Shown here one piece after another: positions 39,110 to 64,000 of a stretch of 64,000 bases of DNA. The notes beneath the pieces were generated by a model. The model saw nothing but the letters and a program-made list of their open reading frames with translations, did not search any database and was not told the DNA's origin. A program made the position numbers and the translations under genes. The stretch is from Amoebophrya sp. A120 (taxonomy: Eukaryota; Protista; Dinoflagellata): NCBI GenBank assembly GCA_905178155.1, contig CAJINV010000005.1, forward strand, positions 2,296,054-2,360,053, read 5' to 3'. Each line of letters begins with the position of its first letter. Position 1 is the stretch's first letter.

Positions 39110-42100
39110 ATGAGCGACGGCGCATTTATTTCCCCGAGAACTGCAGCGGAGCGGCAGCGGTCGCTTTTCCGAGCGGGTTTGCAGCAGAATAACGGAGCAG
39201 GACCCAGCAACGCCAAAAAGCAGCCGAATATGGTTCCCGGGACCTCCGCAGGTGTAGGCAACAAGATGATGCTGAAGGAGCAGATCGGTGGGTCCTCAAG
39301 CTCCACCGCGACGCGGATAAATCACAACTTCTCCAACCACAAGGACCCCAATTATAACTCGAGTTCTGCTACCCGGCGGAACTACCTCTTGGGCGACAGC
39401 GAGCGGAACCAGCCGCACTACGTCGGGTACAACAAAAATTTCAAGCACTACGACCACCTGATGGAGCTGGAGCGGACCAAGCCCTCCCCCAACTGGCACG
39501 AGCTGTCGTCCTACAAAAAGCGGTTTTTCGTCGGCCAGAAGCTGCACGAATCGCCCCCGGACGAGTGGAAAAGGTTGGACCCAAGGGTCACGAAACGGGT
39601 GCCGGAAATGAGCGAGAAGTGGCGTTTTATCCTATTTAAAAACGTCCCCACCCCATAGTTGTAATGCAAATCTGCATGCTGAAAATGTTTCTCATGCGGA
39701 GCCCGATGAGCAGTTTCTAGTCGTGTTTTGCAATTTGTCATGCTCCAATCAGCATCGTATGCTAGGTCTGTTATGCTGCTGAGCTAGCTCAAACAGCACT
39801 ACACTACGAATCCAAATTTGTGATGCAAAACAGCCAAAACTTGTGGATTTATCTAGCCGATTCCCCATCTTGACTATGGTGTGGGGACATTTTTACTCAG
39901 GATACGTTTAGTCGGTTCCTTTCTAGAAGCTCGGGGGCTGATCAGCTGCCAACTGGAGTCCTTCAACAGCTTCGTCAACCAGGGCATTAAAGACATCGTC
40001 ATGTCTCGGTCTAACGTGGAAATTCGGTGCGACGTGGACCCAAACTGGTACGTGCGCTTCACCGACATCCAGATCGGCCGGCCCCAGATGATGGACGAGC
40101 GGTCGCTACAGGATCTGGACTATCAAATGCAAAAGTGTCTGGGTCTGGAAACTTGTAATGCTAAAATGTGACTGGTGGGCGCACTCCAATACGCAGCCAA
40201 GCATGACAAATTTTTGAGCTGCTCTGGTGTTTCGTTTTCCGCATGGCAAACTGCGTTTCTGCATGACAGACAAGAGGTCCTTTTCCTGCTCCTGCATCGC
40301 AGATTTATGAGTCATGCCAGACAAGCATGACAAACTTGCATTCTTCCAGACCCAGACACTTTTGCAATGTATATGGACGTGTACCCGCAGCAGTGCCGAT
40401 TACGGGACCTGACGTACTCCGCGCCGATTTACGTCTCCTATTACTATTACGCGGGAAAGACCGCGACCAACCCGACGGTGTCCCCGCAACCGCTGCTGCT
40501 TGGCTATTTGCCGATCATGCTGCGGTCGGACAGGTGTCACTTGAGCAAGAAAACCGAGCACGACCTGATGAAGATGGGGGAGTGTCCTTTAGATCCCGGG
40601 GGGTATTTTATCATCGACGGGACAGAAAAAGTGCTGATGATGCAGGAGAACATGAGCAACAACAGAATCATCGTGGAAAAAGCGGACAAGAAGACGCACC
40701 GGCTGCAAGCGGCGGTGACTTCCTCCACGAATGACAACAAATCTCGCGTCATCGTCTGCTACAACGCGCGGAACTGCCTGCACATGAAGCATTCGAAGTT
40801 TCAGTCGTCGGTGAACATTGTGTGTTTGATCAAAGCGATGGGCGTAACCGATGAGCAGGAGATCGTGCAAATGATCGGGAGCGGCGGCATGAGCCGGTTC
40901 GGTAGCAGTGGTGGAGCTGCAAGTTGTGCTAGCAGCGGCGGCTCCGGAGGAGGAGGCGGGAATTCAGGGAAGCGAAGTAACGCGGACCAAAACAACTCAG
41001 GTGGAAAGGATCACGGGCGAACGGAGAGCCAGGCGAGAAGTCGGATTCTCGGGGCACTGCTGCCGACCTTCCAGGAGGCAAAGGATTTGGGCGTATTCAC
41101 CAAGCGGGAAGCGCTTGAGTATCTCGGGAGGCACATGAAGGACAGGTAGAGATGTAAAAAGCTTCAATGAGATTTTCCTCGTGCTGTTCATGTTCATCAA
41201 TGCAACGGTTGCATTTTTGATGCGGCCAAATGCGAAGCGTATGCATGAATTGTCCAAAAGTGAATTTTATCAATACGGTAGTTGCAAATTGTTGACGTGC
41301 CCTTCCCATAAACTCCAAACAGGTTCGTCTCCTCCCGGAGCGCACAGAACCAGCAGCAGAACTCCGGCAACCCCAATACCCCGCACCCCTCGAACAAGGC
41401 CTTGCAAGCCTTCCAGGCCCTGGAAATCGTCCTGTCCCACGTCGCCATGGAGCCCCGGTCCGAGCACACGCCCTTCCTGGCGAAGGTGCGGTATCTTTGT
41501 GTGATGATCCGGCGGATTTTCGACGCGGAGGACAACCCCATGCTGGTGGACGACAAGGATTACTACGGGAACAAGCGCATCGAGCAGGCCAGTTCCATGA
41601 TGTCCATGCTTTTCGAGGACGTGTTCAAAACCCTGAACTCCGAGGTGCGCAAGCGCGCGGACGGGGAGATCGGCAAGCTGGTCCAGAAGCAGAACTACAC
41701 CGACTGCGACGTCTTGAAACGCACGGTGCTGGAGTCGGGGAAGGTGACGCAGACCTTCAAGTACGCGCTGAAGAGCGGAAACTGGAAGATTCAGCGGTTC
41801 CGCGTGGATATGCATTGCAAATATGTCTGGGTCTGGAAGGTGGTAAGTTGTCATGCTGTTTTTGGACTCGAAAAAAAATTGTGTTGCATGACCAGCAAGA
41901 GTGGTGCGATTTGTGCTACACGGACAGGGCATTTCTCATGCGGAAGGTGCATCTGGAAGCCCTCTAAAAGTATGCGATGCTAGGTCATGCATTACAGGCA
42001 TCATGGGTCATGCGAAATATGCATGACAGATCTTGCATTCTCCCAGACCCAGACATTTTTGCATTTGATAGTGGACCGGAGTGGGGTGTCGCAGGTCTTG

Positions 42101-45100
42101 TCCCGGTTCTCGTACATGATCTATGCAATGCAAAAGCATCGTACTAGTATGAATTGCATGACAGATTTTTCCTAGAAGAAAAATGAAATTTGTCATGCAG
42201 TTTTTAGTAAGAAAGCAGATCTGTAATGCTAGACTCGCATTTATTATACGAGTGCGATACTTTTGCAATGCATATGATCGCGCTAGGGTCGATGACCAAA
42301 GTGAAGTCCAACGTGGAGAAGTCGCACAAGATCGCGGGGCCCCGCGCGCTGCAGCCCTCGCAGTGGGGCATGCTGTGTCCGGCGGACACCCCGGAGGGGG
42401 AGCAGTGTGGGTTGATAAAAAACCTGTCCCTCATGGCGACGGTGACTACTGGTCTAGGAGACACGGCCCTGGCAGAAATGAAGGCGTTGATCGAGTTATT
42501 GATAGGAAAAATCCCCCTCCCCATATCGAAAAGGTAGGTTTCCAAAAATTTGTGTTGCGGATTTGAGGTCACAAATCACATCTGTCCTGCAAGAAGGCAA
42601 ACCCAAAGAATCCGCCGCCTTATGGAGGTGATTTGTAATGCTGTTTCACCTACATGGCAGGCCTCTCTTATGCCAAGAGCCTACAACAGAACACCCCTAT
42701 GCAGGCTGAGGCTTTGCCTGTAGTGCCTCGCTGCAAGACAGGGCTGATTTGTGTACACAAATCCTGCAGCAGAAGTTTTCGTTTCAATATGGGGAGAGGG
42801 GATTTCTCATTTTGATACGAGTCCAAGGGTGTCACCATGCCCGACGAGTCGTCCGCAAGCGATCAGCTCTCACCCGACTCGCCGGATACATTATTAGTTT
42901 TCTTCAACGGGCTTCTCCTCGGGTCCTGCCGCGACCCCAACACGTTGATGACGCACATCAAGGAGCTATCCCGTGTAAAAACATCCCCAACCCAGAGTTG
43001 TCATGCAATTCTGCATGCCAAAAAAGTTTCTCATGCGGAGCCCTATGAGAAGCACAAGCATTTTCTGTTCGTGTTTTGGGATTTGTGATGCTAGGATCAG
43101 CATGCTGTGCTAGATCTGTGATGCTTTTGAGCTAGCTAAACAGGATCACACTACGAGGACAAACTTGTCATGCCAAACAACCAAAGCTGTGTGATTTGTC
43201 TAGCAGATTTCCCATCTTGACTCTGGTGTGGGGACGTTTTTGATCAGGATAGGAGCTTCGGCGGCGGGGCGTGATTTTCCAGTTCACCTCGATCTACCAC
43301 CACGAGAACACGAAAACCATCAACATCGCCTGCGACGAGGGCCGGCTCTGCCGCCCGCTGTTGATCGTGGAGAACGGGAAATGCCTCTTCGATCCGAAGA
43401 AGCACGTGCCGTTGCTGACTGGGCGGCACCCGGACGGGACCCGAGCGAAGCGGTGGACCTTCACGGACTTTTTGAACAATGGGGTGGTGGAATTCGTCGA
43501 TGTGAACGAGGAGAACAACCTCCTTATCGCCATGAAGCACGAGGAGCTGACGAAAGACCACACCCATTTGGAGATCGAACCCTTGACGCTCCTCGGGGTG
43601 ATTTCGGGTTTAGTCGCGTACCCGAACCACAACCAGTCCCCGCGGAACACCTACACGTGCGCGATGGGGAAGCAGGCCATGGGCTGCATCGGCTACAACC
43701 AGTTCCAAAGAAGCGACAACGTGTTGTACCTGTTGCACTACCCGCAGAAACCGCTGTGCAAGTCGAAAACGTTAGATTTCGCACAGTACGACCGGTTTGG
43801 CGCGGGCATCAACGCCAGCGTCGCGGTCATTTCCTACAGCGGGTACGACATTGAAGACGCCATCGTGATGAATAAGGCCAGCATCGACCGCGGGTTCGGG
43901 AGGTAAATTTTCACTATAAGCAGCTTCACTACATGAGTAAGAAGTTCTTGTTGCAGGAGGTGACACTTTGAATTCGCTTTAGGTTTTTAGTACTATGCCG
44001 ACGCTGTTTTTAGGTACTTACTATAACAACTTATCTAATTCAAATTCTTTCAACTCCAATGATCTGCATTTTAGGTGTATCGTCATGAAGCGGCACGTTG
44101 GAGTTTGTGACCAAGTCGGCAGCCACAGCGAGGTGGTTGCGCCGCTCCCAAAGGCGTTACTGCAAGACAAGCGAAAAAAACGCGAGAAGCACCGGGTCCG
44201 AAATTTGGACCCGGATGACGGCGTCGTGTGGCCAGGGAGCGTAGTGGGAGATGGTATTTCTAAATAATGCTGAACTTCTTTTTGTCGATTCTTTTTCGAT
44301 GTTATGGGTGCTGCAGATGTGTACTAGCTTGTTTTCCGAGAAGGAAAAAGAGAGGAAGTTGTAGGGTCATCACAAAAATAAATCAAAACAAAAACTGTAT
44401 CACCCCAGGCGACATCATTCTGAACAAGCAGACCCCCGACATGAAAGCGACCACCCCCTTCAATGCCAGTTCCATTACCAACCCGGAGCAGGCGGTGATG
44501 CGCGACAACCCGGTGTGTCACAAGATGCCGGTGGACAGCAAGGACATCATCGACCGCGTTTTGATCACCCACAACGACTATCAAATGTAAAAATGTCTGG
44601 GTCTGGAAGAGTGTAAACTTGTCATGCAGGTTTTCCATGACCCATGAGGTCTGGCATGCGGGACCTAGCATGACAGAGTCTGTGAGGTCTCTGTCATGCC
44701 TATCCTGCATGAGAAACTCCCTCCCAACTTGGCCGAAAGTGGGCAGCTTTTGGCAGTCATGCAACACAGATTTTTGCATGATTCGGCTTTAGCATGACAA
44801 GTTGCAACCTTCCAGATCCAGACACTTTTGCATTCCATAACGACCAGCACCTGCGGATTTTCAAGATGATGTACCGCGACGTATCCTGCCTAAAAACGTA
44901 CCCACACCAGAGTCAGGATGGGGATTTTGCAACACAAACCTAGGAGTTTTGTGAGTCACGCATGACAAGTTGCAGGATGTATTGTAGTGCAGTTTAGCAA
45001 GGGAAGCCGCATAACAAATCCACCTCCTCATCCTGTTCACAGCATCACAAATTCCAAAACACAATGGGAAATGGCTCTCATGGGGATGCGCATTACAAGT

Positions 45101-46195
45101 CTTCCTGTCTTTGCAAGTCTGCATTACAACTCTGGTGTGGGTACGTTTTTACTCAGGATACGACACCCGCCGCCCCGAGCTGGGCGACAAGTTTGCGTCG
45201 CGGCACGGGCAGAAGGGCGTGATCGGGCTCATCGTGCCCCAGCAGGACATGCCCTTCTCCGAAACCGGGTGGTGCCCGGACCTGATCATGAACCCGCACG
45301 GGTTCCCCAGTCGCATGACGGTGGGGAAGATGCTGGAGTGTGTGGGCTCGAAAGCCGCGGCGCTGGAGGGCACGTTCTGCGACGGATCCGCGTTCGGCGG
45401 GACGCCGCCGCAGAAAATCTACTCCACGCTGATCCAGCACGGGTTCGCGCCGAACGGGAAGGAGTTTCTCACCAGCGGAATCACGGGCGAGCCCATGGAG
45501 TGCTACGTCTTCGTCGGACCGATCTTTTACCAAAAATTGAAGCACATGGTGGCGGACAAAGTTCAGGTACAGCAGTTCTTTTCGATCATAAAAACTAAAA
45601 CCATAATTGTCGAAGACGTTTCTTTTCGTTGTCCTCTTCGTTCTTCAGCGACTGGACAACGAACTGGAGAACAAGTTTCAGTTCCGCCATACTTTTCGCA
45701 CGACTTAGGATTATTTTGATATCGGTGTGCTCCGGTGAGCATTTGTTAGGCGGAATCAATGCAACCAATCGGAGGACCGACGAGAAAGATTGGCATCTTC
45801 ACAAGAACTCTTGATATACCGATGATATCACCAAACCTTACTCTCCACAGGCCCGCGCCCGCGGCAAGCTCAACGTGTTAACCCGGCAGCCCACCGAGGG
45901 CCGCGCGAAGCAGGGCGGCTTGCGCATGGGGGAGATGGAGCGCGATTGCTTGATCGCCTACGGGGCGTCGAACTTGCTGCTGGAACGGTTGAACTTTTCC
46001 TCCGACGTGACGGACGTGAAGATCTGCCGCGACTGCGGCCTCTTCGCCGACGCCAACTTCTGCCGCTACTGCGACGAATCCGGGGACAGCAAGGGACGAC
46101 TCTTGGACTGCCGCGTGCCCTACGCCTGCAAACTGCTGTTTCAGGAAATGCAGTGCATGAACGTGGTGGCCAGGATCGGGTTTGAGGAGGTGTAA
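39110..46195 (+). CDS. RPC2: RNA polymerase III second-largest subunit; 8 introner introns plus 4 GT-AG introns (41146-41322, 43903-44074, 44254-44408, 45567-45850)
   Basis: Reconstructed [135 protein letters not shown]. Confidence 0.96.
39628..39904. mobile_element. Introner, family 2 (TATCCT..AAAAACGTCCCCAC TIR)
   Basis: Direct repeat CGTTT; removal gives KWRLVGSF. Confidence 0.93.
40121..40373. mobile_element. Introner, family 1 (TATCAAATGCAAAA.TGTCTGGGTCTGGAA TIR)
   Basis: Direct repeat TGGAC; removal gives [10 protein letters not shown]. Confidence 0.93.
41809..42070. mobile_element. Introner, family 1
   Basis: Direct repeat GTGGA; removal gives [15 protein letters not shown]. Confidence 0.93.
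42122..42274. mobile_element. Introner, family 4 (TATGCA.TGCAAAAG.ATCG.ACT.GTAT TIR)
   Basis: Direct repeat TGATC; removal gives SYMIALG. Confidence 0.93.
42497..42817. mobile_element. Introner, family 3 (TAT..AAATCCCCCTCCCCATAT TIR)
   Basis: Direct repeat CGAGT; removal gives LIESKGVT; same length (321 bp) as 48251-48571. Confidence 0.93.
42967..43251. mobile_element. Introner, family 2
   Basis: Direct repeat GGAGC; removal gives IKELRRRG. Confidence 0.93.
44579..44839. mobile_element. Introner, family 1
   Basis: Direct repeat ACGAC; removal gives [11 protein letters not shown]. Confidence 0.93.
44882..45160. mobile_element. Introner, family 2, opposite orientation to 39628
   Basis: Imperfect direct repeat CGACG/CGACA; removal gives [13 protein letters not shown]. 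Confidence 0.93.
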
Positions 46196-47015
46196 GCTTT
46201 TTGGTGCACAAAGCTGTCGGAGTAAACTTCACTTCCACAAGGGGATCCTGCCAGCGGCAACGCGAAAACGACTTGAAGGCTTTTTTTTCGAGTTCCATCT
46301 ACATCGTTCCAGGTGCGACCTCTTATAGAGGCCCTGAGCTGCGATCTAAATCAGACGACCATCTTCAATCATCATGCAACACGCCGTCAGTTGTGCAGGG
46401 GCGCGACGAATTTTTGTTTCCGCAGCCTTCCACGAGGAAGCGGAACTTCTTGTGTTCTGGATCTAAGTACAACTTTCCGCGCATGATCCTGGTTTGGTAT
46501 ACAACAAGCAAGCAAGGGCGCTGGGCGAAGATTAAGTACCGTAGGAGGACATGGACCACAAGGATCTTCAACATTTCATTGCTGAGGGCTCGTTCCTCGT
46601 CCTCTGTGAATGCAGTTTATTTGATCATTTCACTGACTTTTGTACTATTTACATCGTTACAACTCTCAACTCGTCCACCAGTCTGTGTACAACTCGCCCG
46701 GACTCTTCTTCAGTCGTGAATTAATCTTCAGATTCTGTTGTGCTGTTATTTCTTCATTTCCAGTCCGCTTGTTTGTTGAAGATGAAGTAGCATATCTACT
46801 TAACTCAGATTGATGTAGTGTCCTTTGTGCTTTTTCAGTTACGTCAACCGTGATTTTTTCTTTCTGCCGACTTGATGTTTAGAGCTAGAGCAGTCATGTG
46901 ACTGTAGTAACCTCTTGACAAAAAATAACAAGGGACGAAACAACTTTTCCGTACTTCTGTCACCACTAAGTCCCAGAACCCACAATCTATCTGGAAGAAA
47001 AACTCTCAGAACACC

Positions 47016-50000
47016 ATGTCGTCTTCCGCTTCTACTCTGAAACCCCCCATTGTCATCGACACCGGCACGGGCGGCGTGAAAGCGGGGATTGCAGGCGACA
47101 AATTTCCCGCGCTCTATTTCCCGACTTGCGTCGCGCGGGCGAAAACACGGCTGGATCAGAACCACAACGGGGGCCCTCAAGGTCCTGGTGCGACGTCTCA
47201 ACTACCTCGGGTTGGGACAACGACGAGTGGCGGCTCCTCGTCTTCCAGTTCTTCGCCCGATTATGTGATGTACGAGAGCAAGACGGCCCTTTTCGCAAAG
47301 CTGCAGGCCTGTCCATGGATCAACCAGGAATTTTTGGAAGAGTTGAAGAAGTCGCATAGTGCCGATGATGAGGACGACAATTTGATGCCGCTAGAAGACC
47401 ACGAGGACGCGCCTGGTCGTCCTGGGGGACCGAGGAACAACGATGCCGTCTTTGGTGGAGCAGGGCCAGAACGTCCATCAGCACCCATGCCGATGAATGT
47501 CGACGGAAGTAGCGGAACATCACACAACTACTACACTGAGCAAAGCGACCCGCGCGTGGCACCCGGGCAGAAAATAAGGAACACGTCAAATAACCCTGCG
47601 TCGGTGTCTCATTTGATGAATCGACTGAGTTTGAAGACGCCCGATTCCGAGCTGAACGACCCACAGAATATGCTGGTGCATGTGGGCAGCGGCGGCGGTA
47701 CTATGACTTCGAGCGGTGCAGCGGGTGGACGCGAAGACGGCGGACGCGATGATGAGCAGGAAGATCTTCGTAGCCGCGAGGACCACATGGACGTGGAGCA
47801 TCAGAACGAGCAAGAGGAAAATAACGCTGGACCACAATTACAGGCTGCTGCGGACGAGGAAACAAGCAAGATCATCATTGGTCCGCGGCTGTGGTCGTCC
47901 CGGTGGCACTCGTTGAACACGCACGACTTGAGCTACCCGATGAAGTATCAAATGCAAAAATGTCTGGGTCTGGAAGATTTCTAGATTTGTCATGCATATT
48001 TTCCATGAGCCTTGATGTCTGTGATGCATGCCGTAGCATCACAGATTTTGAAGGGGCTTTGCGATACCTCTACCGCATGAGAAATGCCCTCTCCACGTAG
48101 GACACACAAACCCGACCCCTCTTGCTGGTCATGCAATACAAATTTTTTTAGAATCCACAAACAGGATCACAAGTTACGACCTTCCAGACCCAGACATATT
48201 TTCATATGATATGAAGGAGGGCCAGGTGGACAACTGGGACGACCTGGAGATATCGTAAAGAAAAATCCCCCCTCCCCATATTGAAAACGCATCCGTCTGA
48301 TAATTTGTGATGCACATTTGTGGCCTCAAATCTTGTCTGTCTTGCAAGAAGGCAAGTCCAGAGAGCCCCCTGCATTTTGCAGGCGGTTTGTGATGCTGTT
48401 GGGCTTAGAGCATACACCTGTGTCATGCTAGGCGCCTACGCCAAAACCTCTCGGCCGAGGCTTGACATATGCCTGCAGTCCTCTACTGCAAGACAGATCT
48501 GATTTGTGTACGGAAATCCAGCATCAGAAACTTCGTTTCGATATGGGGAGGGGGGATTTTTCCTTCTGATAGGAGAAGCTCTGGGACTACTGCTTCCACG
48601 AGCTGGGCATCGACCCCAGCGAGCACACCATCGTCCTCACGGAGCCGGTGCTGAACAACCACAAAAAGCGCGAAACCTATCAAGTGCAAAAGTGTCTGGG
48701 TCTGGAAGGTTACCAGGTTTGCGTTTGTCATGCATATTTTGCATGACCCAGGATTGTTTGTGATGTATGCCCTACCATCACAGATTTTCAGAACCCTTCC
48801 TGATGCCTATCCCGCATGACAAACGCCCTCGTCCCCGCGTAGCACAAACTGGGCTCCTCTTGCTGGTCATGCAATACAGATTGCTTTAGATTCCAAAGTT
48901 TGCATCACAAGTTCCAACCTTCCAGACATCCAGGGATATTTGCAATGCATAAAACCATGGTGGAGATGATGTTCGAGCGGTACGGGTTTAAATATCCTGA
49001 GTAAAAACGTCCCCACACCAGAGTTGTCATGCAGATGCGCAATGACAGGAACATTTGTAATGCGCAGCTCCATGAGAGGAATTTCCAGTCGTGTTTTGGA
49101 ATTTGTAATGCTGTAAACAGGATGTGAGAATGGCTTTCTCATGCAGCTTATCTTGCCAATCAGCACTACACTGCAGAGGGAAACTTGTCATGCACAGCTC
49201 CCAAAACTTGGAGGTTTGTGTTGCTAGATTCCCATCTTGACTATGGGGTGGGGACGTTTTTGCTTAGGATACTAAAGCTGTGAACATCAGCGTCCAAGGG
49301 GTCCTGTCGCTCTACAGCGAGGGCATGCGGACCGGGGTGGTCGTAGACAGCGGGGACGGGTGCACGCACATTGTCCCGGTCTACGACGGCTTCGTGCAGC
49401 CGGCACTGGTCTATCCAAGAAAAAAAACGTTGTTAATAGTGTAAACTTGTGATGCGCAACATTCAAGCTGATTGCGTCTGTCATGCTTGGCATGCATCGC
49501 AGGGCTCATTCAATGGCGTTTTCGCGTAGTATCTGCGCATGACAGGTTTTTGCTGTCATGCGAGAGATATTTGTCATGCTAATCTTCCAAGAAAGTTACA
49601 CAATGTTTTTTCTTGGATATGGTCCAGCGCATGAACATTGGTGGGCGGCACGTGACGCAGCAGCTCCAGCAGCTACTAACCCGGAACAACCTGGACGTGT
49701 TTGGCGCGTTCTCCAGCCCGGTGCTGCAGGAGCTGAAGGAAAACAGCTGTTACATGGCGTACGACCTCGAGAAGGAAATGCAACTGCACCAGAACACCAC
49801 CGCCATCGAGCAGGTCGTCGCGTTGTATGACCACCGGACCAGCAACGCGCTCATATGTTGGGACGCTCAAACGTTACAATGATTGATCGTTGTCGCATTA
49901 TTTTGTATTGTGCAAGAAGACTAGCAAAAGCGAAATGGGAGAGCTTGGGCGTGGTTTATCGCTGTTTAGCGGGTCGAGCGCAACTTGTCATGCGAAGCAG

Positions 50001-50999
50001 CTTGATTGGGTTGGGGGCTGAACCTGATGCTGATTCTGCGTGACAAATCATATAAGAACAGCGACCAATGTAGTAACGTTTGACTATGCCATAGCTCACC
50101 CGGGTGCGCGTAGGCGAGGAAAGGTTTCTGGCGCCGGAGATTTTGATGAATCCACGGATGTATCAGGTATGAAGATTGTGTGTGGTTTTTGTATTCCGTG
50201 TTATGCACGCACCCTCCCGGAGCAGGACAGATCAGCATCAGTGTATTTATATATAGTAAGTAGATGCATTACACTAGCAGCCTGATATTGGGTACTGTGC
50301 ATGACAATTCGCAATATCCAGGAAATGAACTTCGATTACGGGCACCAAAACGCGGGCGTCGCGGAGTTTTTGTACCAAACGGTGATGGACGCCGACGTGG
50401 ACCTTCGCCGGACGTACTTCAGCGCCATTCTCTATCCTAGGAAAAAACGGCTTCACTGTAGTAAACTTGTTGAGAAAGATGAAGATGAACAGGAAAGAAC
50501 TACAGCAGGGAGAAGGCCACGACAGCACACGAGGACTTGTTGTCTTGCTACAAATTATCCATCAAAACAGCGCAGCTGTTTTTCTGCCCCTGTATTTCCC
50601 CATTGGTAGGGAGGCATGCTGGCAGTTTTTTTTTTCTATAAATCACGAAAAACAAACTAACTTGGCATGCGAGAAGTGGTGTTGCAGCAAATCTATCATC
50701 GCAGTGAAGAAACTGTTTTTTCGTGCGATATCTTTTTGTCCGGGGGCAATACGCTCTTCCCAGGGTTCAAGTCCCGCCTGGACCGGGAATTGCGGCAGCT
50801 CTACAAGGACCGCGTTGGCGGCCGCATGGTGTTCAAGGTCGAGGATCCGGCGCGGCGGAAATTTGCGGTCTTTCTAGGCGCCAGTTTCCTGGCGGAAACT
50901 GCCTACTGTGGAAACGACTACAGTAGGTTTTTGAATCAGGCCGAGTACGAAGAAGGCGGCGCCGCGGGCATTCACAGCTACTGCATGCCGCAATCGTGA
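47016..50999 (+). CDS. ARP2: Actin-related protein 2-like; 7 introner introns plus one GT-AG intron (50167-50321)
   Basis: [109 protein letters not shown]; the last two resemble Arp2 more than actin or Arp1. Confidence 0.85.
47946..48211. mobile_element. Introner, family 1, opposite orientation to 41809
   Basis: Direct repeat TGAAG; removal gives [11 protein letters not shown]. Confidence 0.93.
48251..48571. mobile_element. Introner, family 3
   Basis: Direct repeat GGAGA; removal gives DDLEKLWDY. Confidence 0.93.
48678..48951. mobile_element. Introner, family 1
   Basis: Direct repeat AAACC; removal gives [11 protein letters not shown]. Confidence 0.93.
48993..49271. mobile_element. Introner, family 2
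   Basis: Imperfect direct repeat TTAAA/CTAAA; removal gives [11 protein letters not shown]. Confidence 0.93.
49412..49619. mobile_element. Introner, family 5 (TATCCAAGAAAAAA TIR)
   Basis: Direct repeat TGGTC; removal gives [11 protein letters not shown]. Confidence 0.92.
49854..50093. mobile_element. Introner, family 6 (TATG..TCAAACGTTAC TIR, decayed)
   Basis: Direct repeat GCTCA; removal gives [13 protein letters not shown]. Confidence 0.88.
50433..50730. mobile_element. Introner, family 5-like, decayed direct repeat
   Basis: TIR TATCCTAGGAAAAAACGGCTTCACTG vs CAGTGAAGAAACTGTTTTTTCGTGCGATA; flanks TTCTC/TCTTT; removal gives SAI(L/F)LSGG. Confidence 0.85.
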
Positions 51000-51700
51000 A
51001 GACGTGACTCGCTCATGTACTTACATCGATGAATAATAGAGGGCGACGCGCACGCACTTTGTTTTTTGTCAATCAAGGACCTAGTTTATTCCTCTGGTCG
51101 CCAATCCACCACAAGGCAACAATGGCGACGCAGCTGTCCAAATAAAGTGCCTCTTCTCGTATTAATTCTACGTGCAGCACTTTTTCGGCGCAAATACGTA
51201 CAACAGTGAAGACGTAAGTCCGCTCATTGCGCCGGCCGTGTGTTCTCTCTAAGCAGTGCGTACTAAAAGCAACTTGGACATATACAATAAACTGAGATAG
51301 AAATAAATCAGGAACAGCTCATCTTCGTGGACCAGATCGCCATCGCTATAGATCGTGCGTAGGGTCGTGGTCAGCACCAACAGTTACAGTTTCAGCGAGG
51401 CCAAGACGCAGGTCATCAAGTTCCGATAAAATGTAAGGGTCATCGTGAGTGGGGGGTTTTCGTGTTTCGTCGGTATCCAAGAACTTCGAAATCGTCATCG
51501 TCTTCATCTTGATACTGTCGCTGGGAATTTTTATCGTTGAACGACAAGGAGAGTCGTACTCGTATGTTTCAACGTATTCTGATCCTTTCGTCGTGGGCGA
51601 CCTTGTTTGTCAATTTGGAATAAGTTTTAGATTTAGTATTTGCTTGTGTAAAACTACCTGACACCAGTCCCCTTTCCCTCACGAGACGTGTGCGAAGAGC

Positions 51701-53472: not shown

Positions 53473-53856
53473 ATCGATCCTTGTATGTCGCTATCGATAT
53501 CGTCTTTCGTGCCCCGAGTGAGCTTCTCCTTGCCTTCTCCCTCCTATTCCCATTTTCCTTTCTTTAAGCACGTTGTTTTCGTGGTTTTATGGTCGGTGAA
53601 CCGGTACCCCTGTCCGCCATAAATTTCTATGTCACGTTAAACAAGCGAGCACTCCCTTACACTTTCTCTTCCTTCTGCTTCATAGGGCAGCGAGACTGTG
53701 TTCGGTGAGACGGCAGGGGCTGTAGTGCTATCCTCTTTTTCAATCCCGAGTGATTTTCGGTGCGCGGTTTTGTTGTTGCGAGTGAACCTGAGCTGTCCAA
53801 ATTCCTGTTTCTGTTCTCATGCAAAAAAGGCCATTTGCATGCTTCAAAAACTTCAA
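53473..53856 (+). mobile_element. Left-truncated copy of stack unit U3 (non-LTR/SINE-like) with 18-bp target duplication
   Basis: TCTTATGCGAATTTCATT at 53455-53472 and 53857-53874. 53565-53856 aligns with 30425-30718 and has the same right end (CATGCAAA..TTTGCATG hairpin, then TTCAA). Confidence 0.85.
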
Positions 53857-53989
53857 TCTTATGCGAATTTCATTCATGAGCCATAGTCACATAGTATGAT
53901 TGGTATGATTCATCTAATACAACAAGCGTTGTGCCAGTGCCACGGGCTCTTCTCAGCTTGATAGCGAAGAATGGCACTTTGGAGGCTGG

Positions 53990-54266
53990 TATGCAGTGCA
54001 AATATGCCTGGGTGTGGAAAGTTGTAGTTATGCAAATTTTATGATACAACAGTACAGCAACACAAGATCAAGAGCCTCCAATTCCAACACACGCATAACA
54101 AGTTTTTGAGTTACGCCAGATGCCGATCGCGTTTTGGCATGAGAAACAAGTACAATAGAACTGTTGCACTGTTGCGCCGTACACTGGACAGATATTTCGG
54201 TCCTCTTATCAGCCAAGCTTGACAAGGCTGGCAAGTTTCCAAACCCAGATGTGCTTGCAGTGAATA
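53990..54266. mobile_element. Introner, diverged family 1-like
   Basis: Direct repeat GCTGG; TIR TATGCAGTGCAAATATGCCTGGGTGTGGAAA / TTTCCAAACCCAGATGTGCTTGCAGTGAATA. Confidence 0.85.
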
Positions 54267-54316
54267 GCTGGAAGCAGATCATCACTATCGAGCCCGGACA
54301 CGACCCGGTAACCATT

Positions 54317-54863
54317 TATCTTGGGTGAAAGCGTACCCACCACCCTTAGTCAATCTGAAATTTGGGACGCGCGCATGACAAAGTTGTATGGTCCATTGCG
54401 CAGTCGTGATCGCATCGATCAGAAATCCGTTGTCTTATGCTTTCCAAATTCCAATAGAATTTAGAAAATGCCTTCGATGGGGAGCCGCGTGAGACATGTC
54501 CGAAACATGCTACATTTGCATGTTTAGGGAGTTAGGTAATTTCCAGTAGAAGTGCTAGTAGATTTGCATTTTGACAGATTTGCATGTGTACAAATAAAGG
54601 CTTCCCTGGGTGGCCGCCATCTGCGGCCGTTCGTACATGGGGAGGCAGAGGGCGCCGCACTTCTGTTTATCAATCAATCAATCGTTCTCATCTAAAGGAT
54701 CTTGGGAGGCGATGAGAGCAGGTTCTGCGCCTCTGCTCTAAGCTTGTTTCCTTCACTTGCCACAGAAGGGGGACTTCTTAACTTATGAAGAAACCTAGAA
54801 CAAAGTAACTAGTAAAGCTCGATTAAATTTTGGGCGGTGGGTTCTATGCTTTTACTCCGGATA
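54317..54863. mobile_element. Introner, diverged family 2-like, enlarged to 547 bp
   Basis: Direct repeat CCATT; ends TATCTTGGGTGAAAGCGTACCCACC / GGTGGGTTCTATGCTTTTACTCCGGATA. Confidence 0.8.
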
Positions 54864-56403
54864 CCATTGCCGCTATGTGCGCGCTGAAAGAAAACGAGAA
54901 CGTCAGGGCCAACTGGATCCAGTTATCGCATAGCGAAGTATGATGTAGCATATCATACATGTGATGCGATCGCAATAAAGAATGAATAAAATAAATACAA
55001 GTGCATGTACGGTCGTTTCCTCCATATGCGGGACACCAAAAGTTCATGTTTGAGGCTGAGTGGTGTTGAATTGAATGCTGACTGATTTTGTTGAGGTTAG
55101 AAAGTGTTGTGTATCGTGGCGCTTCGCCGTCGTTTCAGTGTTCAGGGAACGGTGCATTTTTACTCATCATGATATGTTACTTGCTCTTTGTTGTGTCATA
55201 TCGGCGAAACGAAAACGGTGTCCTTGGTTTTGCTGCTGGGTATGCCACCCTTCCGGTTGTGGCGGTACCAATTGTCACGTGTTTCCACCTCAACATGTCG
55301 ATGTGAGCCAATTTATTGAGCATTGTTCGACACCAGCATCTCGTGATTTCAGCTGCGTGACAGAGCAATATCATGAGCATGACCGCTGCGGCGCAGAGAG
55401 CGCATGTGCCTAGAATGAAAGATGATGATGATAGTTTTCATTTTGTGGTGGGGACTCTTTTCATCATGATCAAGCATTGCGGCGACGGCGGCGTTGTCTC
55501 GCTGAAATGCATGCCACGAACCCCTCCCTTTTGATCCCTGAATGTCGTTGCGGGTGGAGTACGTATGTTTTGTTTCTGTCTTTATGAAAATAAATGCAAT
55601 GTCAAGATAAAGATCAACTTTGCGAGATTTAGCCGCGCTGGTGGTCCGCTGCATGTGACAGAAGTGTAAGACTGTTCTTTGTACTTCAACACTCATCTGA
55701 CAAATTACGCGTAGAAAGAACTGTACTAAAGCATTTCATTGCGATGTACCTTGCTCATATCTGTCTTTCAACATCGCAGCGTGTTTTTCCTGAAGTTTCT
55801 ATGGTTTCTCTTTGCAACCGTCGTTTCATCATCGAGAAGATTTTACAGAAAAAAATCGTTGCTTTTGATTATTTTATCAGTTACAGCTTCTGTGCGATTG
55901 TCATTGTGATTCGAATTTCAGTTGTCCTATTTGGTTGTTGTGCTTCTACTTCGCGTAGAATGTAAAATTAAGATTAACTTTAAAACTTCTCAACTGTTGG
56001 TCATGGAAATCGATCCCGCACACACGTAACACGATCGCCCCAAATGAAGCCTGTTCCATGATGAAAATGACTGAAGGTTCTGACTCAAATCGACCCCGTG
56101 ACATGCTGATGAAATAGCTAACTACGAAGCGGATCTAGACTCTGGAATGTGTTGACATCTGGTGAGAATGATGCGAGAATCTTGATGAACCTGATTGAAC
56201 CAAACCTACAGGATGTAACGCAGCAAGAGACTTGCGTCACTTGCTTGCTTACTTGCAATTGAGAGAACTCATTGAAAAGCTGTTGATAACGAGCTCAGTG
56301 GAGCAAGCGTGTGTAAGTGTGTGTGAGTGTTCTCAAGTCCACTAACACTACGCTACGCCTTGAGACTCAAACTGGCTCTTCTAGTCAGATAAGTACTCAC
56401 AAA

Positions 56404-57589
56404 ATGGGCCAAGAGGCAAAGCTGGTTGAGAAGCTGCCCAGTGCGCAGGACTGGCGCATCTGGTATCGCGGAGTCACGAACGAGGTCTCGCGCCTCGGAC
56501 TCCAGGAGTACTGGGATAATCGTCTTGCTGGTAATCCTCCGGGGATTCCGCAGGCGAATATCGCTGGCAACAACGCGATCCGGGAGAAGTGGCGCGACCT
56601 GAAGGATGCCATCTACAAGTCGTGCACCGGGTCCGTGTCCACGTGGGTCAACACTCAGCACTACATCAACGACGACGCTGCGCAGCTGTTCATGCGTATT
56701 CGGGATGTTGGTCGCTTCAATGTTGCCTCCCGTGACCAGCAGCACATCAAGATAGACCTCCTCGATCGACGCCATGCATTTCGACAACCGCGACGCGCCG
56801 AAGGATGCTCCGACGTTCCTGGCCCAGATCCACGAGCTGACGGAGATGGCGCCGAGTGTCTACGTCCCGGAGCCCGGGCGTCCGGTCGAAGATCGTCATG
56901 TCAAGAACATTCTGGACAAGCTGCCCAAGATGTTCGCGTCGGCCTTCCGCCAGACCATCGACCGCTGCGTGGACGAGTCCGATCACATCACCCTCCAGGA
57001 GATCGGGAACCGTCTCGAGAAGAAGCTCGCGCAGTTGGTCAAGGAAGGTTCCTACAAGATCGAGAGTCCGTCCTTTGGCAAGGCCTTTCCGGTCATCGAG
57101 GAGAAGTCGAAGAAGAAGAAGGGAAACAAACGTCAGAGAGACGATGATGATGAGGAGCCGGACTCCGCTGATGATGGTCAAAATGCTGCTTCTGGCAAGG
57201 TGTTCTCGGCGAAAGCCTTGAAACGCATGAAAGCCAAATTACGCAAGCAGACCGAAGCGAGTGTCCTGGCTGCCCATGGCCTGCCCCCGAAGTCTAACGC
57301 TAAGGGTGGAAGTGGCCAGAAAGGTGGCGGCAAGACTGGTCGGAACCAGAGCACTCCCTACAACACTGTGACCAAACCCAAATGTTGGATCTGTGGCAAG
57401 GAAAACCATAAGGCTGACCGTTGCCGCTGGAATCCTAACAATCAAGGGAAAGGTCAGTGGGGTGGTGTCTGGGGAAACCAGCAGCCGCAGTTTTGTCCGC
57501 CGGTGAACCAGAACCAGATGAACATGCAGAATCAAGGGCCGGGAGCCGGTGGAAAGCAGGGTGGTTGGGTCTGGCAAGGTCCAGCCTGA
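56404..57589 (+). CDS. gag: Copia gag, split across two frames near 56755-56770
   Basis: ORF from MGQEAKL continues in the +1 frame (56774-57589), ending with zinc knuckle CWICGKENHKADRC. Confidence 0.8.
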
Positions 57590-57716
57590 CTAGATGAAGG
57601 AGATGTTTATATCTCGGAGTATGGTCGTTGTTTTCTGAACTTCGAGAATTTAGAAGAATTTGACTCAAATTATTCTAGCTGTTTTATTGCACAGACCAAG
57701 GACGAAGTGAGCTTCC

Positions 57717-60700
57717 TTGGTCGATTCATGTGCAAACAAGTATTTATCTAGACACAAGTCGGATTTTATTGACATCTCGAGCAACGTCTGTCGCATCAAC
57801 GGCACGGCCGGGGCTCGTGATGGTTTTGTCGGAAAACTGAAGGAAAACGCTTTAGGTTTACCCTACGGCGTCTACTTTAAGCATCTTCCTAGAGATATTG
57901 ATCGTATTCTTCCGTGGCTCGGTGAGGACAATCTCAGTGATCGCGGGTGGGATCTGAACTACAACAGCTCTGGCGGTTCTCTCGTCAACAGGGAATCCGG
58001 TCAGATGCTACCAATCAAGAACCACGAGAGGTTGACCCTCCCAGTCCTTGGGTGTGATCTTTTCGTGGTGGGCCTACGGGGTCAGGCGACTAGAGACACC
58101 ACGGAAGACATTGCATGCATTACAATAGAGGAAAGTATTGCTAGTTGTCATCTTACGCGTCTAGAACAACATAGAAGATTCGGACACTTTCATGTAGATG
58201 GTCTTGATGTCCAGTGTCCTGAATGCGACAAAGCGAAAGGCGCAAGAAGCTCTCACGCCAAGGAGCGAGACACTAGTAATTACAAGCCTCAGCCATTGAA
58301 ACTACTTGCGATGGATTTCGCGGTAGGTATTAAACCTGTATCGATTCGGTCACGCACCTGCGTGCTTGTGGTCATCTGTGAAGCCATCAAGAAGTGTTTC
58401 TGTGTCCCTCTTAAGCTGAAAAGTGACTGCGTTGAGGTTTTGGAAGAATTGATCAAAGGCATTCGCCAGAACTACGCTTTGACCCTCGAGGACAAGGTGG
58501 TATGGTTCGTCCGTAGGGACAGTGAGCCAGTTCTGGGCAGTGACTCCATGACCAAGGTCATGCAATCGCTGCGGGTCGGTGATGCTCCTGCGGTTCCCTA
58601 CAACCCAGAGCAGAACGGAACCTGCGAGCGCTTTATGCGGACCATATTCGGCGCTGTGCGTGCGATGTTGGTGAACGTGGACAAGCGTCTGTGGTGCTAC
58701 TCGGTCGAGTACGCTGCAGCATGCTGGGACCGCCTTCCGCATAAGTATAGCAAAATGCCTGAGTACGACGGGAAGACTCCTGCAGAGATTCTAGATGAGA
58801 GAACTGGAAGAAACAGCTCAAAAGTTGGCACAAGGATGCTAAGGCGTTTTGGTTGTCTCGTTTATTTTCGTGAACAAGTCAAGAAAGGCGAAGTTCATGA
58901 AGCTCCTGAGGGGGGAGTAAATGTGGTAGCTCCAAAGCTGTCCGCGCCATTTCGTCGTGGTGTATTTCTCGGCCTTTGTCCAAAGTCTTCGGGCTGGCGG
59001 GTTGGGACGTATGTCACGGATGGCCGGGCCGCCGCGGGACATCGATGGATGGAGTATTCTACCATCGACGTCAAGTTCCGTGAGGAGTACCTCGTGAAGA
59101 ATATTGAAGACCTAGTTCCTAACTCGAAAGGTATTTATGTCGAGTGTGACGCAATCGAGGCCCTACCTAGTGGAGCGCCGTGTGCGCCATCTCTCCCGTG
59201 TGTCGGTCTGATAAAAAGGGCTGAGCACCGGCTGGGGGTGGATGTCTCGGAGCACACTGGTAGGCAGCCTGACGGTCCAGAAGAGACGTTGGTGGTTAAA
59301 AGTCTGGATAGGGAAGATGATCCGGGCCAGATACATCCCGAGCCTGAAGGTGTTAAACCTGAGGAGGGGAATCTGGACGATCACCCCACTCACAGCAGCT
59401 TATCTAGTCCAAGAAAGGCGAGCCCGTCTCCGGCAAGGATTGTGGCTGGCAACCGCAACTCCAAGCCGCGAGGTCGTGGTCGTCCCAAAGGGAGAAAGGA
59501 CAAGAAAAAGCGCGCGAGACGTGCTAAGAAAGAGCTCGCAGAATTGAGAAAAGACGCGAGTGCGTTTGCCGCAGCAATAGCCGCACAGGATGATCGAGAG
59601 GAAGGTGAGGAATTCCTTGACGTCCAGTGTTATTTGACTACATCGGCCAAGTTGGATCCTGCTCGTTGCAAAGACTCAGTCGAATGGAACGCAGCAACCA
59701 ACAAGGAAGATTGTAGACTTGAAGCCTATAAAGTGTGGGAGCCAGCTACTGACGAGGAGCTAGCGACCGCAAAACAGGTTTTGCCTATTGCTATCCTTCT
59801 TACCGAGAAGCGTGACGGTACGAAGAAAGCGCGGGCAGTAGTTCTCGGTAATCTAGATCGTTCGGGCGAGCTGGACACTTTCGCTCCTGTTGTGTCCCAT
59901 GCCGCTAACAGGTTACTTCTAGCCGCTGCAGCCGCAGACGGTGATGATGTGATCCCGTTCGACCTTGATAGTGCGTTTCTCAATGCCTTACTTGATCGCG
60001 ACGTCTTCTGCCGCTTGCCACCCATCTGGGCGAAGAAGCACGGCGCGGAGATCGTCAAGCTCAAGAAAGCGCTTTACGGCTTGAAAGACGCCCCCAGGCT
60101 CTGGTATAAGAAGTATGAGGAAGTACTGACCAAGCTAGGTTGGGAACCCTGTCCCTCTGCGCCAGGTCTGTGGAAGAAGCCGGGCTTGGAATTCCCTGGG
60201 AAGTTTCTGAAGTTGGCAGTGTATGTCGACGATAATCTTATCACAGGTCCTCCGACTGGGTCCGAGTTGGCTGGAGAACTTGCGGAGATCTTGCACCACG
60301 TCAAGGGGCGCATGATCGACGTCGAGCTTGTTCCGGAGTTTAACTCTGTGTCCAAGAAGTTCGACTTCCTAGGGTCAGTAGTGTACTACAACTGGAATCT
60401 ACGAACCGTTAGGATCGTGATGTCAGAGTACATATCCAAGATTTGTAAGAAATTCCACGTCTCAGAAGCGGGCAAGCCGGTCCACTCGCCAAACTTCGAT
60501 GAGTCTGAACTCGCTAAAGAAGTTGAAGGAGCTAAAGTTATTGAAGGTTTTCCCCTTCGAGAGGTCGTTGGCTCTCTGCAGTGGGCTGCAACCACCTGCA
60601 GGGTAGACATTGTTGTCCCGGTTGCCACTGTCGCCAGATATGTGGGCAAGCCGGCGACTCGGCCTGTCGTAAACGCCTGTAAGAAGATTCTGAAGTATCT

Positions 60701-61412: not shown

Positions 61413-62539
61413 AGGGGATAGCTAGTTCACCACAGCGCGCTCAGGAGGGGAGTGTGGTAGGACGCTATCCAGATTAGCACCACCGCCGCAGCGATTGAGG
61501 AGGGGTGTTGGTCATGGAAATCGATCCCGCACACACGTAACACGATCGCCCCAAATGAAGCCTGTTCCATGATGAAAATGACTGAAGGTTCTGACTCAAA
61601 TCGACCCCGTGACATGCTGATGAAATAGCTAACTACGAAGCGGATCTAGACTCTGGAATGTGTTGACATCTGGTGAGAATGATGCGAGAATCTTGATGAA
61701 CCTGATTGAACCAAACCTACAGGATGTAACGCAGCAAGAGACTTGCGTCACTTGCTTGCTTACTTGCAATTGAGAGAACTCACTGAAAAGCTGTTGAAAA
61801 CGAGCTCAGTGGAGCAAGCGTGTGTAAGTGTGTGCGAGTGTTCTCAAGTCCACTAACATCAACAGAAATGATACACAAGAAGTAATTCCTTTGGGATTTA
61901 TGTACACCACAAAAATTTGAAAATTTAATGGCATCAAGATCACCAGATGAGACAAGAGGACACTGCTTTGCGGTAAACAAAAAGGTGGCAAGCGAGAGCA
62001 GGAGGCCCTTCATTTTACAGCTCAAGAAAAGTTTTCCTGTTCTCGGTGCTCTTGGCCTTTTCTCATGTTTTCTCTCGGGTGTTGTGTGCAGCTTCTTGAC
62101 GGGTCTACCAACCAAGGATACAACGCAGGTAGATGGATAATTAAGTGGGGCTTTGTGGATGATCCTTTCACCGCCGGGTGCGGGACAGCTACGTGGTCGC
62201 GCAAGATCTGGCTTGGATTTCGTGCGCGGAACAAGTGAATATGCTGGATCAGTGTTTGTATTTGAATTTGTTTCAGAGTATGACTACAAAGCGGACAACC
62301 GCGCAAAAATTCTCAACGAACAAGTTGGCGGCCAGATCTTTCTATTAATCGACATGATCAGCTCTGCTTATCTGCAGGCACTATCGGTGGACGAAACACT
62401 CTTCGATCTTCGGGAGTGGTCCAGGAAAAGCGAATTGTTAGAGTTGTGCCGATGCAAAGTACGAAGCACTTTTTACTCTGGTTGCTTGTATGAAATGAAA
62501 ACAAAAGAAAATTAGTACTAGATCATACCGACGAAGACG

Positions 62540-64000
62540 ATGTCCGCAACTCCTGTGTCGTCCCCAGGCTACGCCGACGAGATCCTGGCCCAGGAGCCCT
62601 CGTTTTTCTCGAAGTTTTGCCTCGACGGGCTGCTGGCCCTCGCGGATTGTGTCGTGTTGCTCGGGCTGCTGGCGTATCAACTGTAAAAATGTCTGGGTCT
62701 GGAAGATTCAGACACTTGTCATGCACGTTTTGCATGGGGATGGGCCCTGATGTCTGTGATGCATGCCCTAGCATCACAGATTTTTTGAGAGCTTCTTGAT
62801 GCCTATTTCGCATGACAAATGCCCTCTCCGCGTAGCAAGAATTACACTGCCTTTGGTACTCATGCAATACAGATTTTTTTGGAATCCAAATGCAGCATCA
62901 CAAGTTGAATTCTTCCAGACCCAGACATTTTTACATTTGATATGGCGCTGATCTCCCAGCTCCGCCGCACCAAGTCGTTGCTGGGACTGTCTCTGCAGAC
63001 GATCGTGGCGCTGACGGTCACTATCAACTGCAAAGCTGTCTGGCTCTGGAAGGATGCGAGCTTGTGATGCGTGTTGCGGATCATACAAAAATCTGTGTTG
63101 CGTGACTTGCAAAAGGTGTCCATTTCTGGCCATGCTGAGAGGGCATTTCTCATGCAGTATAGGCATCACCTTCTCCTTCACCAAGGGGCTGCAGAACCTG
63201 TTATGCTAGGCCCTACATTCCAGACTTGGTGGAACTTGGAGAAACTGCATGACAAATCTCGGAAGACTTACCGTTTGTAGCTTTTATAAAGAAATGGGAC
63301 GCCCTGCCCTTAGCCTTCCAACATGACAAATCGAAATCTCGGAATCTTCCAGACCCAGATTTATTTGCACTCGATAGTCACGCGGGTGCTGCATTTTGCC
63401 TCCTGTGTTCTCGGTTTCCACTTTGACGCCACCCGGTTTTTGCTGCTGGACTTGGCGTATGAACTGCAAAAGTATCGTACTAGTATAAATTGCAATACAA
63501 ATTTCCTCAGCATGAGAAATAAAACTTGTCATGCGGATCCACCTTAACAATAGAATTTGTAATGCATAAACGCGATTAGTACGAGTACGATGCTTTTGCA
63601 CAGGATATGGCGATCGTGGTGGCCCTGGTATTTGTCTGCCTCCAGGTGTTCGAGTTTTTCCCGACCTACCAGGGACTATCAAATGTAAAAATGTCTGGGT
63701 CTGGAAGGTTGGAACTTGTCATGCTGAATCTGAATCATGCAAGAAATCTGTGTTGCGTGATTACCAACAGCCGTCGTTTTTTACCAAGTTGAGAGGCAAT
63801 TTCTCATGCAGGATCGGCATGCTAGAGATCTCACAGAGTTTGTCATGCTAGGCGCTGCATTCCAGTCCTCATGAGTCATAGAAAACCTGCATGACAAACC
63901 TGGTAACCTTCCAGACCCAGACATTTTTACATTTGATAGGGACTCGCGGTGGACAAATTCGGCCGGTTTTTGCACCCCAACGACCATGCGCAGTGTGCCT
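62540..64000 (+). CDS. ER lumen protein-retaining receptor (ERD2/KDEL receptor)-like, 3'-incomplete, 4 introner introns
   Basis: Reconstructed LADCVVLLGLLALISQLRRTKSLLGLSLQTIVALTVTRVLH...FFPTYQGLAVDKFG matches the ERD2-family pattern KS..GLS..T.....R.L / TY....D.F. Confidence 0.75.
62675..62942. mobile_element. Introner, family 1
   Basis: Direct repeat TGGCG; removal gives GLLALISQ. Confidence 0.93.
63022..63376. mobile_element. Introner, family 1 (longer variant)
   Basis: Direct repeat GTCAC; removal gives LTVTRVLH. Confidence 0.9.
63458..63607. mobile_element. Introner, family 4
   Basis: Direct repeat TGGCG; homologous to 42122-42274; removal gives LDLAIVVA. Confidence 0.93.
63677..63938. 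mobile_element. Introner, family 1
   Basis: Direct repeat GGGAC; removal gives TYQGLAVDKF. Confidence 0.93.

Follow-up and report, generated by a model that had tools for sequence, protein, structure and literature searches.

Introners, short transposon-like elements that behave as introns, crowd a 64,000-nt stretch of the Amoebophrya sp. A120 genome (assembly GCA_905178155.1, contig CAJINV010000005.1, forward-strand positions 2,296,054 to 2,360,053; hereafter the window, with coordinates counted from its first base). We find that these elements are removed from RNA by a cut that lies inside the 5-bp direct repeat flanking them, that one copy of the repeat is left behind, and that in one element the cut falls after base 3 or 4 of the repeat. 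The register of the cut is probably fixed at 4|1, with four bases of the left repeat retained in the mRNA and the fifth passing into the intron. On balance we favour removal by a relaxed U2-type spliceosome that uses the end of the element's terminal inverted repeat (TIR) as donor, although the part played by the spliceosome is something we infer.

The window contains 21 elements with TAT...ATA ends, TIRs and flanking 5-bp direct repeats, which are perfect in 18 cases and mismatched in three. A finder for TIRs with repeats returned 19 matches here, compared with 0-2 across 20 trinucleotide-block shuffles, and families within the window share 68-83% identity. Fifteen of the 21 sit in two genes, one for the second-largest subunit of RNA polymerase III (RPC2) and one for an actin-related protein, and both reading frames are stop-free once each element is removed together with one repeat copy. 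The spliced RPC2 frame encodes 1388 amino acids with no internal stop, matches Pfam RNA_pol_Rpb2_4/5/6 and has RPC2 as its best PDB match (E 9e-58); it is covered by a 4574-nt RNA contig. The spliced actin-related frame runs to 635 amino acids. A first-pass annotation of the sequence had drawn attention to two of the mismatched elements, 44882-45160 (repeats CGACG and CGACA) and 48993-49271 (TTAAA and CTAAA), and had both their coordinates and their repeat letters right. Each has 18 of 20 terminal bases complementary, and the former lies antisense relative to its family members at 39628, 42967 and 48993. Searches of viral and prokaryote sequence collections returned no matches, and Rfam gave none within the window.

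Direct evidence on the cut comes from sequence runs of three kinds: four contig runs from one sample that are taken as RNA (X1-X4), three runs of raw RNA reads (X9-X11) and four runs of unclassified type. X1-X4 are not on record as RNA and their nature was guessed, but their contigs do skip GT-AG introns; X1, X2 and X3 are three libraries of one sample rather than independent strains, and contigs can conceal rare junctions. The raw runs gave only stray repeat matches and left the exons without cover. Among the joints listed, X1 contigs skip at least six perfect-repeat elements (with 5-7 ambiguous bases each) and at least three GT-AG introns. Of the 15 elements in 39628-50730, the RNA contigs lack 14. 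The remaining introner, 49854-50093, is partly retained: contigs that keep it occur in X1, X2 and X3 (spanning 49824-50123 in X1 and X2), and X1 contigs that end exactly at its repeat ends imply a spliced form.

Mismatched repeats allow the junction to be located, and we define k as the number of left-repeat bases kept in the mRNA. For the two elements singled out by the first-pass annotation, junctions were read from the coordinates and offsets of contig pieces. At the first, X1, X2 and X3 carry a piece covering 45161-45563 without a single differing letter, preceded by 38 nt that correspond to 44839-44876; A45165 is therefore kept, and k is at most 4. At the second, a piece begins at 49273 in all three libraries and the 173-nt offset (35+101+37) includes T48988, so that k is at least 1. 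Jointly these elements permit k = 1-4 only, which alone is insufficient to fix 4|1. A third mismatched element, at 50433-50730, had been overlooked. Its RNA joint runs from 50430 to 50734 with one ambiguous base, and the downstream piece starts at 50734 in X1, X2 and X3, giving k = 3 or 4. The DNA-like run X5 carries the 50433 element unspliced, with both its repeats unchanged, and likewise an unchanged right repeat at 45161 (pieces 45135-47968 and 49555-50900, no differing letters); no X5 difference was recorded at G44881 or C49272, whose covering pieces lie outside those displayed. The cut thus lies inside the repeat, as the first-pass annotation had argued from protein conservation. Part of that argument was weaker than claimed: the threonine of TRRPE on which it leaned at the first element is shared by human RPC2, whereas yeast RPC2 has N there and an archaeal enzyme has L. 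The annotation had also looked to the bases retained in transcripts to settle the register, and here the three window elements give bounds (k at most 4, at least 1, and 3-4) within which 3 and 4 are not distinguished.

A second data set was assembled by a TIR pattern search of one public assembly, which yielded at least 138 stretches, stored as 136 loci (L001-L136, 479 kb). These loci have no overlap with the window genes and no RNA, and all counts from them are among the matches listed. Sequence identity between their elements and those of the window reaches 95%, which indicates that the second assembly is from the same or a close species. Together the two sets comprise 377 distinct elements, 306 with perfect repeats, 55 with one mismatch and 16 with more; 321 were oriented by a codon model, and neighbouring elements agreed in 125 of 131 cases. 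The register was then assessed by coding likelihood in 70 mismatched elements carrying 106 sites (52 clear-frame elements of the main set and 18 added by hand, with window elements excluded). Relative log-likelihoods for cuts 0 to 5 were -22, -21, -15, -7, 0 and -2 with a coding model of order 2, and -47, -40, -25, -10, -2 and 0 with order 4. Model orders 2 and 3 placed the best cut at k = 4, orders 4 and 5 at k = 5. Values of k up to 2 fell 15-47 log units below the best; k = 3 fell 7-10 below and won 25, 61, 108 and 319 of 2000 bootstraps (a maximum of 16%, at order 5). At repeat base 4 the left copy is favoured at 16 of 24 sites with orders 2-4 and at 13 of 24 with order 5, with sums of +4.6 to +9.1 over the four models. 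Without the hand-added elements, no single repeat position is significant in the main set. Cuts 0-1 are ruled out by one stop codon.

Only k = 4 places T at +2 in all 321 oriented elements, TAT ends being a condition of the search that was relaxed in supplementary searches. Because RNA excludes 5 in two elements and the likelihood prefers 4 or 5, k = 4 is the sole value that fits both lines. The 4|1 register proposed by the first-pass annotation is therefore well supported, by the third element, by statistics that disfavour 3 and by the published A120 splice-site classes discussed below. Other routes to the register were less productive. In the small window set, G at repeat base 2 and ATAG ends resembling acceptors had hinted at a 1|4 register; the 50430 to 50734 joint refutes it, and the bias is gone in 262 elements. 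Repeat composition carries no dinucleotide signal (among the 20 cells tested, z is +2.1 for G at base 1 and +1.8 for G at base 4), and a gain of G at +1 among mismatches (7 left against 3 right of 19) is not convincing.

A further 26 end-pairs, most with a poor repeat or none, bear on what anchors the cut. Their frame is best restored by removal of the element plus 5 nt in 18, plus 4 in five and plus 6 in three, in a test that works modulo 3, and on these reading frames the repeat itself seems dispensable for removal. None of the 26 has a 6- or 7-bp repeat, matching the prediction of a TIR-anchored cut. Among individual loci, the open-frame element L039:4323-4602 has an exact direct repeat of 8 bp and L076:2085 a near 8-bp repeat, whereas L043:3995-4966 is a 972-nt element with perfect TIRs and repeat, against a median of 262 nt, and is possibly a nested or partly autonomous copy. 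At 4|1, introner phases are 106/73/73, with phase 0 in excess although the exon supplies no splice-site bases.

The target sequence does not appear to be read. G at repeat base 5, which would become +1, occurs 74 times against 74 expected (252 elements), and AG at repeat bases 3-4 occurs 20 times against 19.3 expected (262 elements); GT-AG termini result at 4|1 in 5 of 321 elements, and in no more than 5 of 321 in any register. These counts support the view of the first-pass annotation that +1 and the acceptor AG are relaxed. Five families splice in both orientations (37/45, 14/15, 9/10, 19/7 and 5/3), so that any signal must lie in the symmetric TIR. In the profile of the 321 oriented elements, A reaches 0.87, 0.91 and 0.96 at TIR positions 11-13, and comparison of left and right deviation over TIR positions 4-22 showed no clear pattern near the ends. 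In predicted folds, a terminal stem joins the two ends and leaves about one base free on the 5' side and three or four on the 3' side.

Changes within the terminal triplet, found in 26 elements, provide a view of which TIR bases matter. At TIR bases 1, 2 and 3 they number 2, 2 and 10 on the donor side and 7, 3 and 4 on the acceptor side. Fisher tests give p 0.036 for base 1 against base 3, 0.057 for bases 1 and 2 against base 3, and 0.18 for the direct comparison of base 1 between donor and acceptor; without the doubtful element L001:318 these become 0.024, 0.008 and 0.07. By hand count, donor-side T to C changes number 0 at base 1 and 7 at base 3. An early donor/acceptor tally of 0 against 7 had become 2 against 9 once the remaining cases were oriented, weakening the asymmetry. 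These patterns offer modest support for a donor-side constraint at +2, perhaps also at +3, and not at +4. The proposal that the TIR supplies donor positions +2 to +4 consequently holds in part: +2 and probably +3 look constrained, whereas +4 does not and +5 is unlike that of canonical donors.

The suggested model for the TIR donor was the GTAT found at canonical introns. All seven donors cited in its favour (14185, 16132, 17983, 18833, 34725, 44254 and 50167), as well as 44881, do read GTAT. Their standing as canonical donors is mixed: those at 44254 and 50167 are confirmed by RNA, and a gene finder called 14185, 16132 and 18833, missed 34725 and, in place of 17983, chose a donor 9 nt further upstream. 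GTAT accounts for two of the five RNA-supported canonical donors in the window. For the second-assembly loci we used our own gene finder, which modelled donors as GT and nothing more and ran without RNA; its 271 noisy calls were reduced to 39 by filters on strand, GC, length, posterior and absence of TIRs. GTAT is the commonest predicted donor among these (13 of 39, the rate at non-coding GT sites being 5%), and +4 among 27 GTA donors is T in 13, C in six, A in four and G in four (p 0.014). The predicted canonical introns of these loci have A-rich rather than pyrimidine-rich 3' tracts, ending in CAG (22/27) or AAG (5/27). The GT-AG intron 50167-50321, with TAT at +2 and ATA near its 3' end, was considered as a decayed introner; its ends match the TIR library at 12 and 15 of 26 positions, compared with 15-16 for control donors, and this origin is not established. 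In yeasts, a +4 U pattern has been linked to loss of METTL16 or SNRNP27K (PMC10581693), and snRNP27 is listed as undetected in both Amoebophrya strains, A25 and A120 (PMC7789003).

We can now propose how the elements may be removed. They would be non-autonomous copies of a TIR transposon, cut out of RNA within the 5-bp target duplication at a register of 4 that is counted from the inverted repeat, so that every intron would take the form N-TAT...ATA-NNNN, with neither +1 nor the last two intron bases being read. The 5' cut would fall one base before the hairpin, set by U+2 and A+3 of the TIR; U+4 would suit an unmethylated U6 ACAGA box without being required. The 3' cut would be set by distance, four bases past the base of the TIR hairpin; neither AG nor the A-rich tract of canonical introns would define it. 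Since both ends are the same TIR, either orientation would work and any target would do, properties that would account for the extent of the invasion. In a broader and more tentative form, which we put forward as somewhat short of an even chance, a U2-type spliceosome possibly lacking U1 small nuclear RNA (snRNA) and SNRNP27K would define the intron by the TIR hairpin and U+2/A+3 alone, whatever the terminal dinucleotides, and any transposon with TAT ends and a 5-bp target-site duplication (TSD) would be an orientation-free intron.

Several observations weigh against this proposal. The 50433 element is the only one in which RNA separates k = 3-4 from 2 and 5, and no element separates 3 from 4; at repeat base 5, 8-9 of the 17 sites point each way, and the likelihood cannot separate k = 4 from 5. 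The donor-side asymmetry is post hoc and weak by the first set of tests given above, a U-G wobble survives in four of the seven base-1 changes on the acceptor side, as a stem model also predicts, and the TIR profiles show no other asymmetry between left and right. Exceptions to the donor triplet exist: L020 reads TTT in a confident frame, L112 reads AAT with a poor coding score and L001:318 reads ATT with a doubtful start. Position +4 is unconstrained on the donor side, with ten changes, and +5 is C in 65% of elements as against none of the 27 canonical GTA donors, which themselves rest on a noisy gene finder. Over the 16 bases that precede the final four, elements have 47% T where canonical introns have 47% A; the 3' ends are thus unlike canonical ones, and their cut is probably placed in another way, by the distance to the base of the stem. 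Finally, U1 snRNA was not found in either Amoebophrya strain (PMC7789003).

The same fixed 4|1 cut could be made independently of the spliceosome, by a nuclease that measures the hairpin and a ligase, with the likeness of N-TAT to GTAT being incidental. The predicted hairpin with its 1-nt 5' and 4-nt 3' overhangs, the full indifference to +1 and AG, the symmetric TIR profiles, the partial retention of the element with the weakest TIR (49854-50093), the non-canonical 3' ends and the missing U1 are all in keeping with such a route, which has been proposed for the non-canonical introns of euglenids and diplonemids (discussed in PMC12621601). We nonetheless consider it unlikely. The terminal pair is broken, and yet the change persists, in all ten donor-side cases at base 3 and in three of the seven acceptor-side cases at base 1, and donor-side T to C at TIR base 1 is absent; T-A at +2/+3 is shared by both Amoebophrya strains despite their different TIRs, a near-complete set of spliceosome proteins is reported for Amoebophrya (PMC7789003), and Fritillaria borealis offers a precedent for a U2 spliceosome acting on TIR-derived non-canonical introns.

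Two further alternatives concern the register itself. A cut at 3|2 (NN-TAT...ATA-NNN), or one wobbling between 3 and 4, would remove TAT from +2 to +4. The sole discriminating RNA case permits 3, up to 16% of bootstraps prefer it, and the Fig. 3 legend of PMC7789003 calls the sites variable relative to the hairpin; against these stand the preference of all four models for the left copy at base 4, the published NT-NN classes and the single joint at 50430, where no minor form was seen, though contigs drop rare forms. We judge this alternative improbable. Less probable still is a junction guided by homology between the repeat copies, through template switching or excision at the DNA level, with no fixed register. 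Such a junction would sit well with the 306 of 377 elements that have perfect repeats, but is already disfavoured to the point of being very remote: elements without a recognisable repeat still fit removal of element plus 5 nt, X1, X2 and X3 share the same junction, the 50433 element stands unspliced in DNA-like X5, and the reading frames require precise removal. Of the explanations considered, removal by a relaxed spliceosome with a TIR donor is the one that we carry forward.

The elements themselves are already known. Introners of strain A120 have been described, in the accessible parts of Farhat et al. 2021 (PMC7789003), as repeated families of about 240 nt with inverted repeats consisting of TAT, seven variable bases and a run of A, and with 3-5 nt direct repeats at their borders; they are RNA-supported non-canonical introns, their border was called unknown and variable, a mechanism distinct from the usual machinery was suggested, and no cognate autonomous transposase was reported. 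The window elements share the inverted-repeat rule (TAT, seven variable bases, at least three A), border repeats, families, removal from RNA and non-canonical ends. In Table S4 of that paper, the predominant splice classes are NT-NN in nine of nine cases for A120 and TT-NN in nine of nine for A25, so that the published annotation seems to use 4|1 implicitly even though the Fig. 3 legend calls the border unknown. Within the accessible text, the paper does not make use of mismatched repeats, the TIR as donor or a link between +4 U and the loss of snRNP27.

The nearest known geometry is that of class 12 introner-like elements in Polarella glacialis (bioRxiv 10.1101/2020.10.14.339549, partial text), which have a 5-nt TSD and, in the NNAGG form, a donor made of the last TSD base and the first element base. 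This is the same 4|1 arrangement, but Polarella recruits G and AG from the target (NAGGH or NNAGG), whereas our elements show no enrichment of either. Introns derived from miniature inverted-repeat transposable elements in Fritillaria borealis have TIR- and TSD-derived non-GT/AG ends at genome scale, require the U2 spliceosome and are accompanied by reduced N6-methyladenosine in U6 (PMC13326754, PMC11282704, in part); they have AG-AC or AG-AT termini, G-rich donors, a conserved U1 and duplicated U2AF, in contrast to the Amoebophrya elements, whose terminal dinucleotides are free except for T at +2. The non-conventional introns of euglenids and diplonemids resemble ours in the hairpin that brings the ends together and leaves the longer overhang on the 3' side, in their variable termini and in their TSD-like repeats, but carry CAG/CTG at +4 to +6 and -8 to -6, with circular products reported (PMC11282704, PMC12621601, in part); the Amoebophrya elements have TAT/ATA at +2 to +4 and -7 to -5 instead, and lack the CAG/CTG pairing. 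Nor do they share the GT...AG termini of canonical U2 introns. In the literature covered, which includes accessible parts of PMC12130899 and PMC11453091 and largely lies outside subscription journals, no paper fixes the register from mismatched repeats or names the TIR as donor, and the splicing rule was not found described; the figures of PMC7789003 may show the register more explicitly.

Features of the window discussed in the text (all on the forward strand)
Feature	Position	Strand	Details
RPC2 gene (RNA polymerase III second-largest subunit)	39110..46195	+	8 introners and 4 GT-AG introns
Seven perfect-repeat introners in RPC2	39623..44844 (39628, 40121, 41809, 42122, 42497, 42967, 44579)	+	six by RNA joints, seventh by contig offsets
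RNA-supported GT-AG introns	41146..50321	+	donors 41146 GTAG, 43903 GTAA, 44254 GTAT, 45567 GTAC, 50167 GTAT; 45567 intron by offsets (45563 to 45848), others by joints
Left direct repeat, first element	44877..44881	+	CGACG; last base (G44881) intronic
Introner 1	44882..45160	+	TAT...ATA, 279 nt; terminal hairpin predicted
Right direct repeat, first element	45161..45165	+	CGACA; A45165 present in mRNA (cut after base 4 or earlier)
Actin-related protein gene	47016..51000	+	7 introners and 1 GT-AG intron; Pfam Actin; RNA contigs
Four perfect-repeat introners in actin-related gene	47941..49624 (47946, 48251, 48678, 49412)	+	sequence and RNA contigs
Left direct repeat, second element	48988..48992	+	TTAAA; T48988 present in mRNA (cut after base 1 or later)
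Introner 2	48993..49271	+	TAT...ATA, 279 nt
Right direct repeat, second element	49272..49276	+	CTAAA; first base intronic
Introner with perfect repeat GCTCA	49849..50098 (element 49854-50093)	+	TIR score 14, weakest of window
Third mismatched element	50428..50735	+	TTCTC 50428-50432, element 50433-50730, TCTTT 50731-50735
Two perfect-repeat elements	53985..54868 (53990, 54317)	+	without RNA cover in X1
Four perfect-repeat elements	62670..63943 (62675, 63022, 63458, 63677)	+	from sequence alone

Other repeats are also present in the window. By a rough sum, X5 contig depth exceeds 100,000 at TIR-bearing bins (44400-44616 and 47872-48088), against about 25 on unique DNA, which points to thousands of copies. 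By eye, a long terminal repeat retrotransposon occupies about 55995-61858, where two near-identical TG...CA repeats of about 350 nt flank a polymerase-like frame. A diverged duplicate of about 280 nt, also seen by eye, links roughly 30420-30700 with 53565-53850, and a short motif recurs near 28260, 29215, 29870, 30720 and 32055; these possibly represent another repeat family. At 3572-4186, a retroelement-like frame contains an insertion that has inverted ends and a direct repeat of 6 bp, and a near-perfect palindrome of 167 nt spans 31268-31434.

In A120, about 65% of introns lack GT-AG and are nevertheless removed, and it is their removal that our analysis addresses. A fixed, TIR-anchored register would reduce hundreds of apparent splice-site classes to one rule, N-TA(T)...ATA-NNNN, correct gene models at mismatched repeats and give exact ends for lariat sequencing. 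G at +1 and a terminal AG are usually regarded as near-obligatory. If the spliceosome does carry out the removal, both would be dispensable when a hairpin positions the intron ends, and the tolerance of the Amoebophrya genome to invasion would be explained, as no proto-splice site would be required for an element to insert and be spliced.

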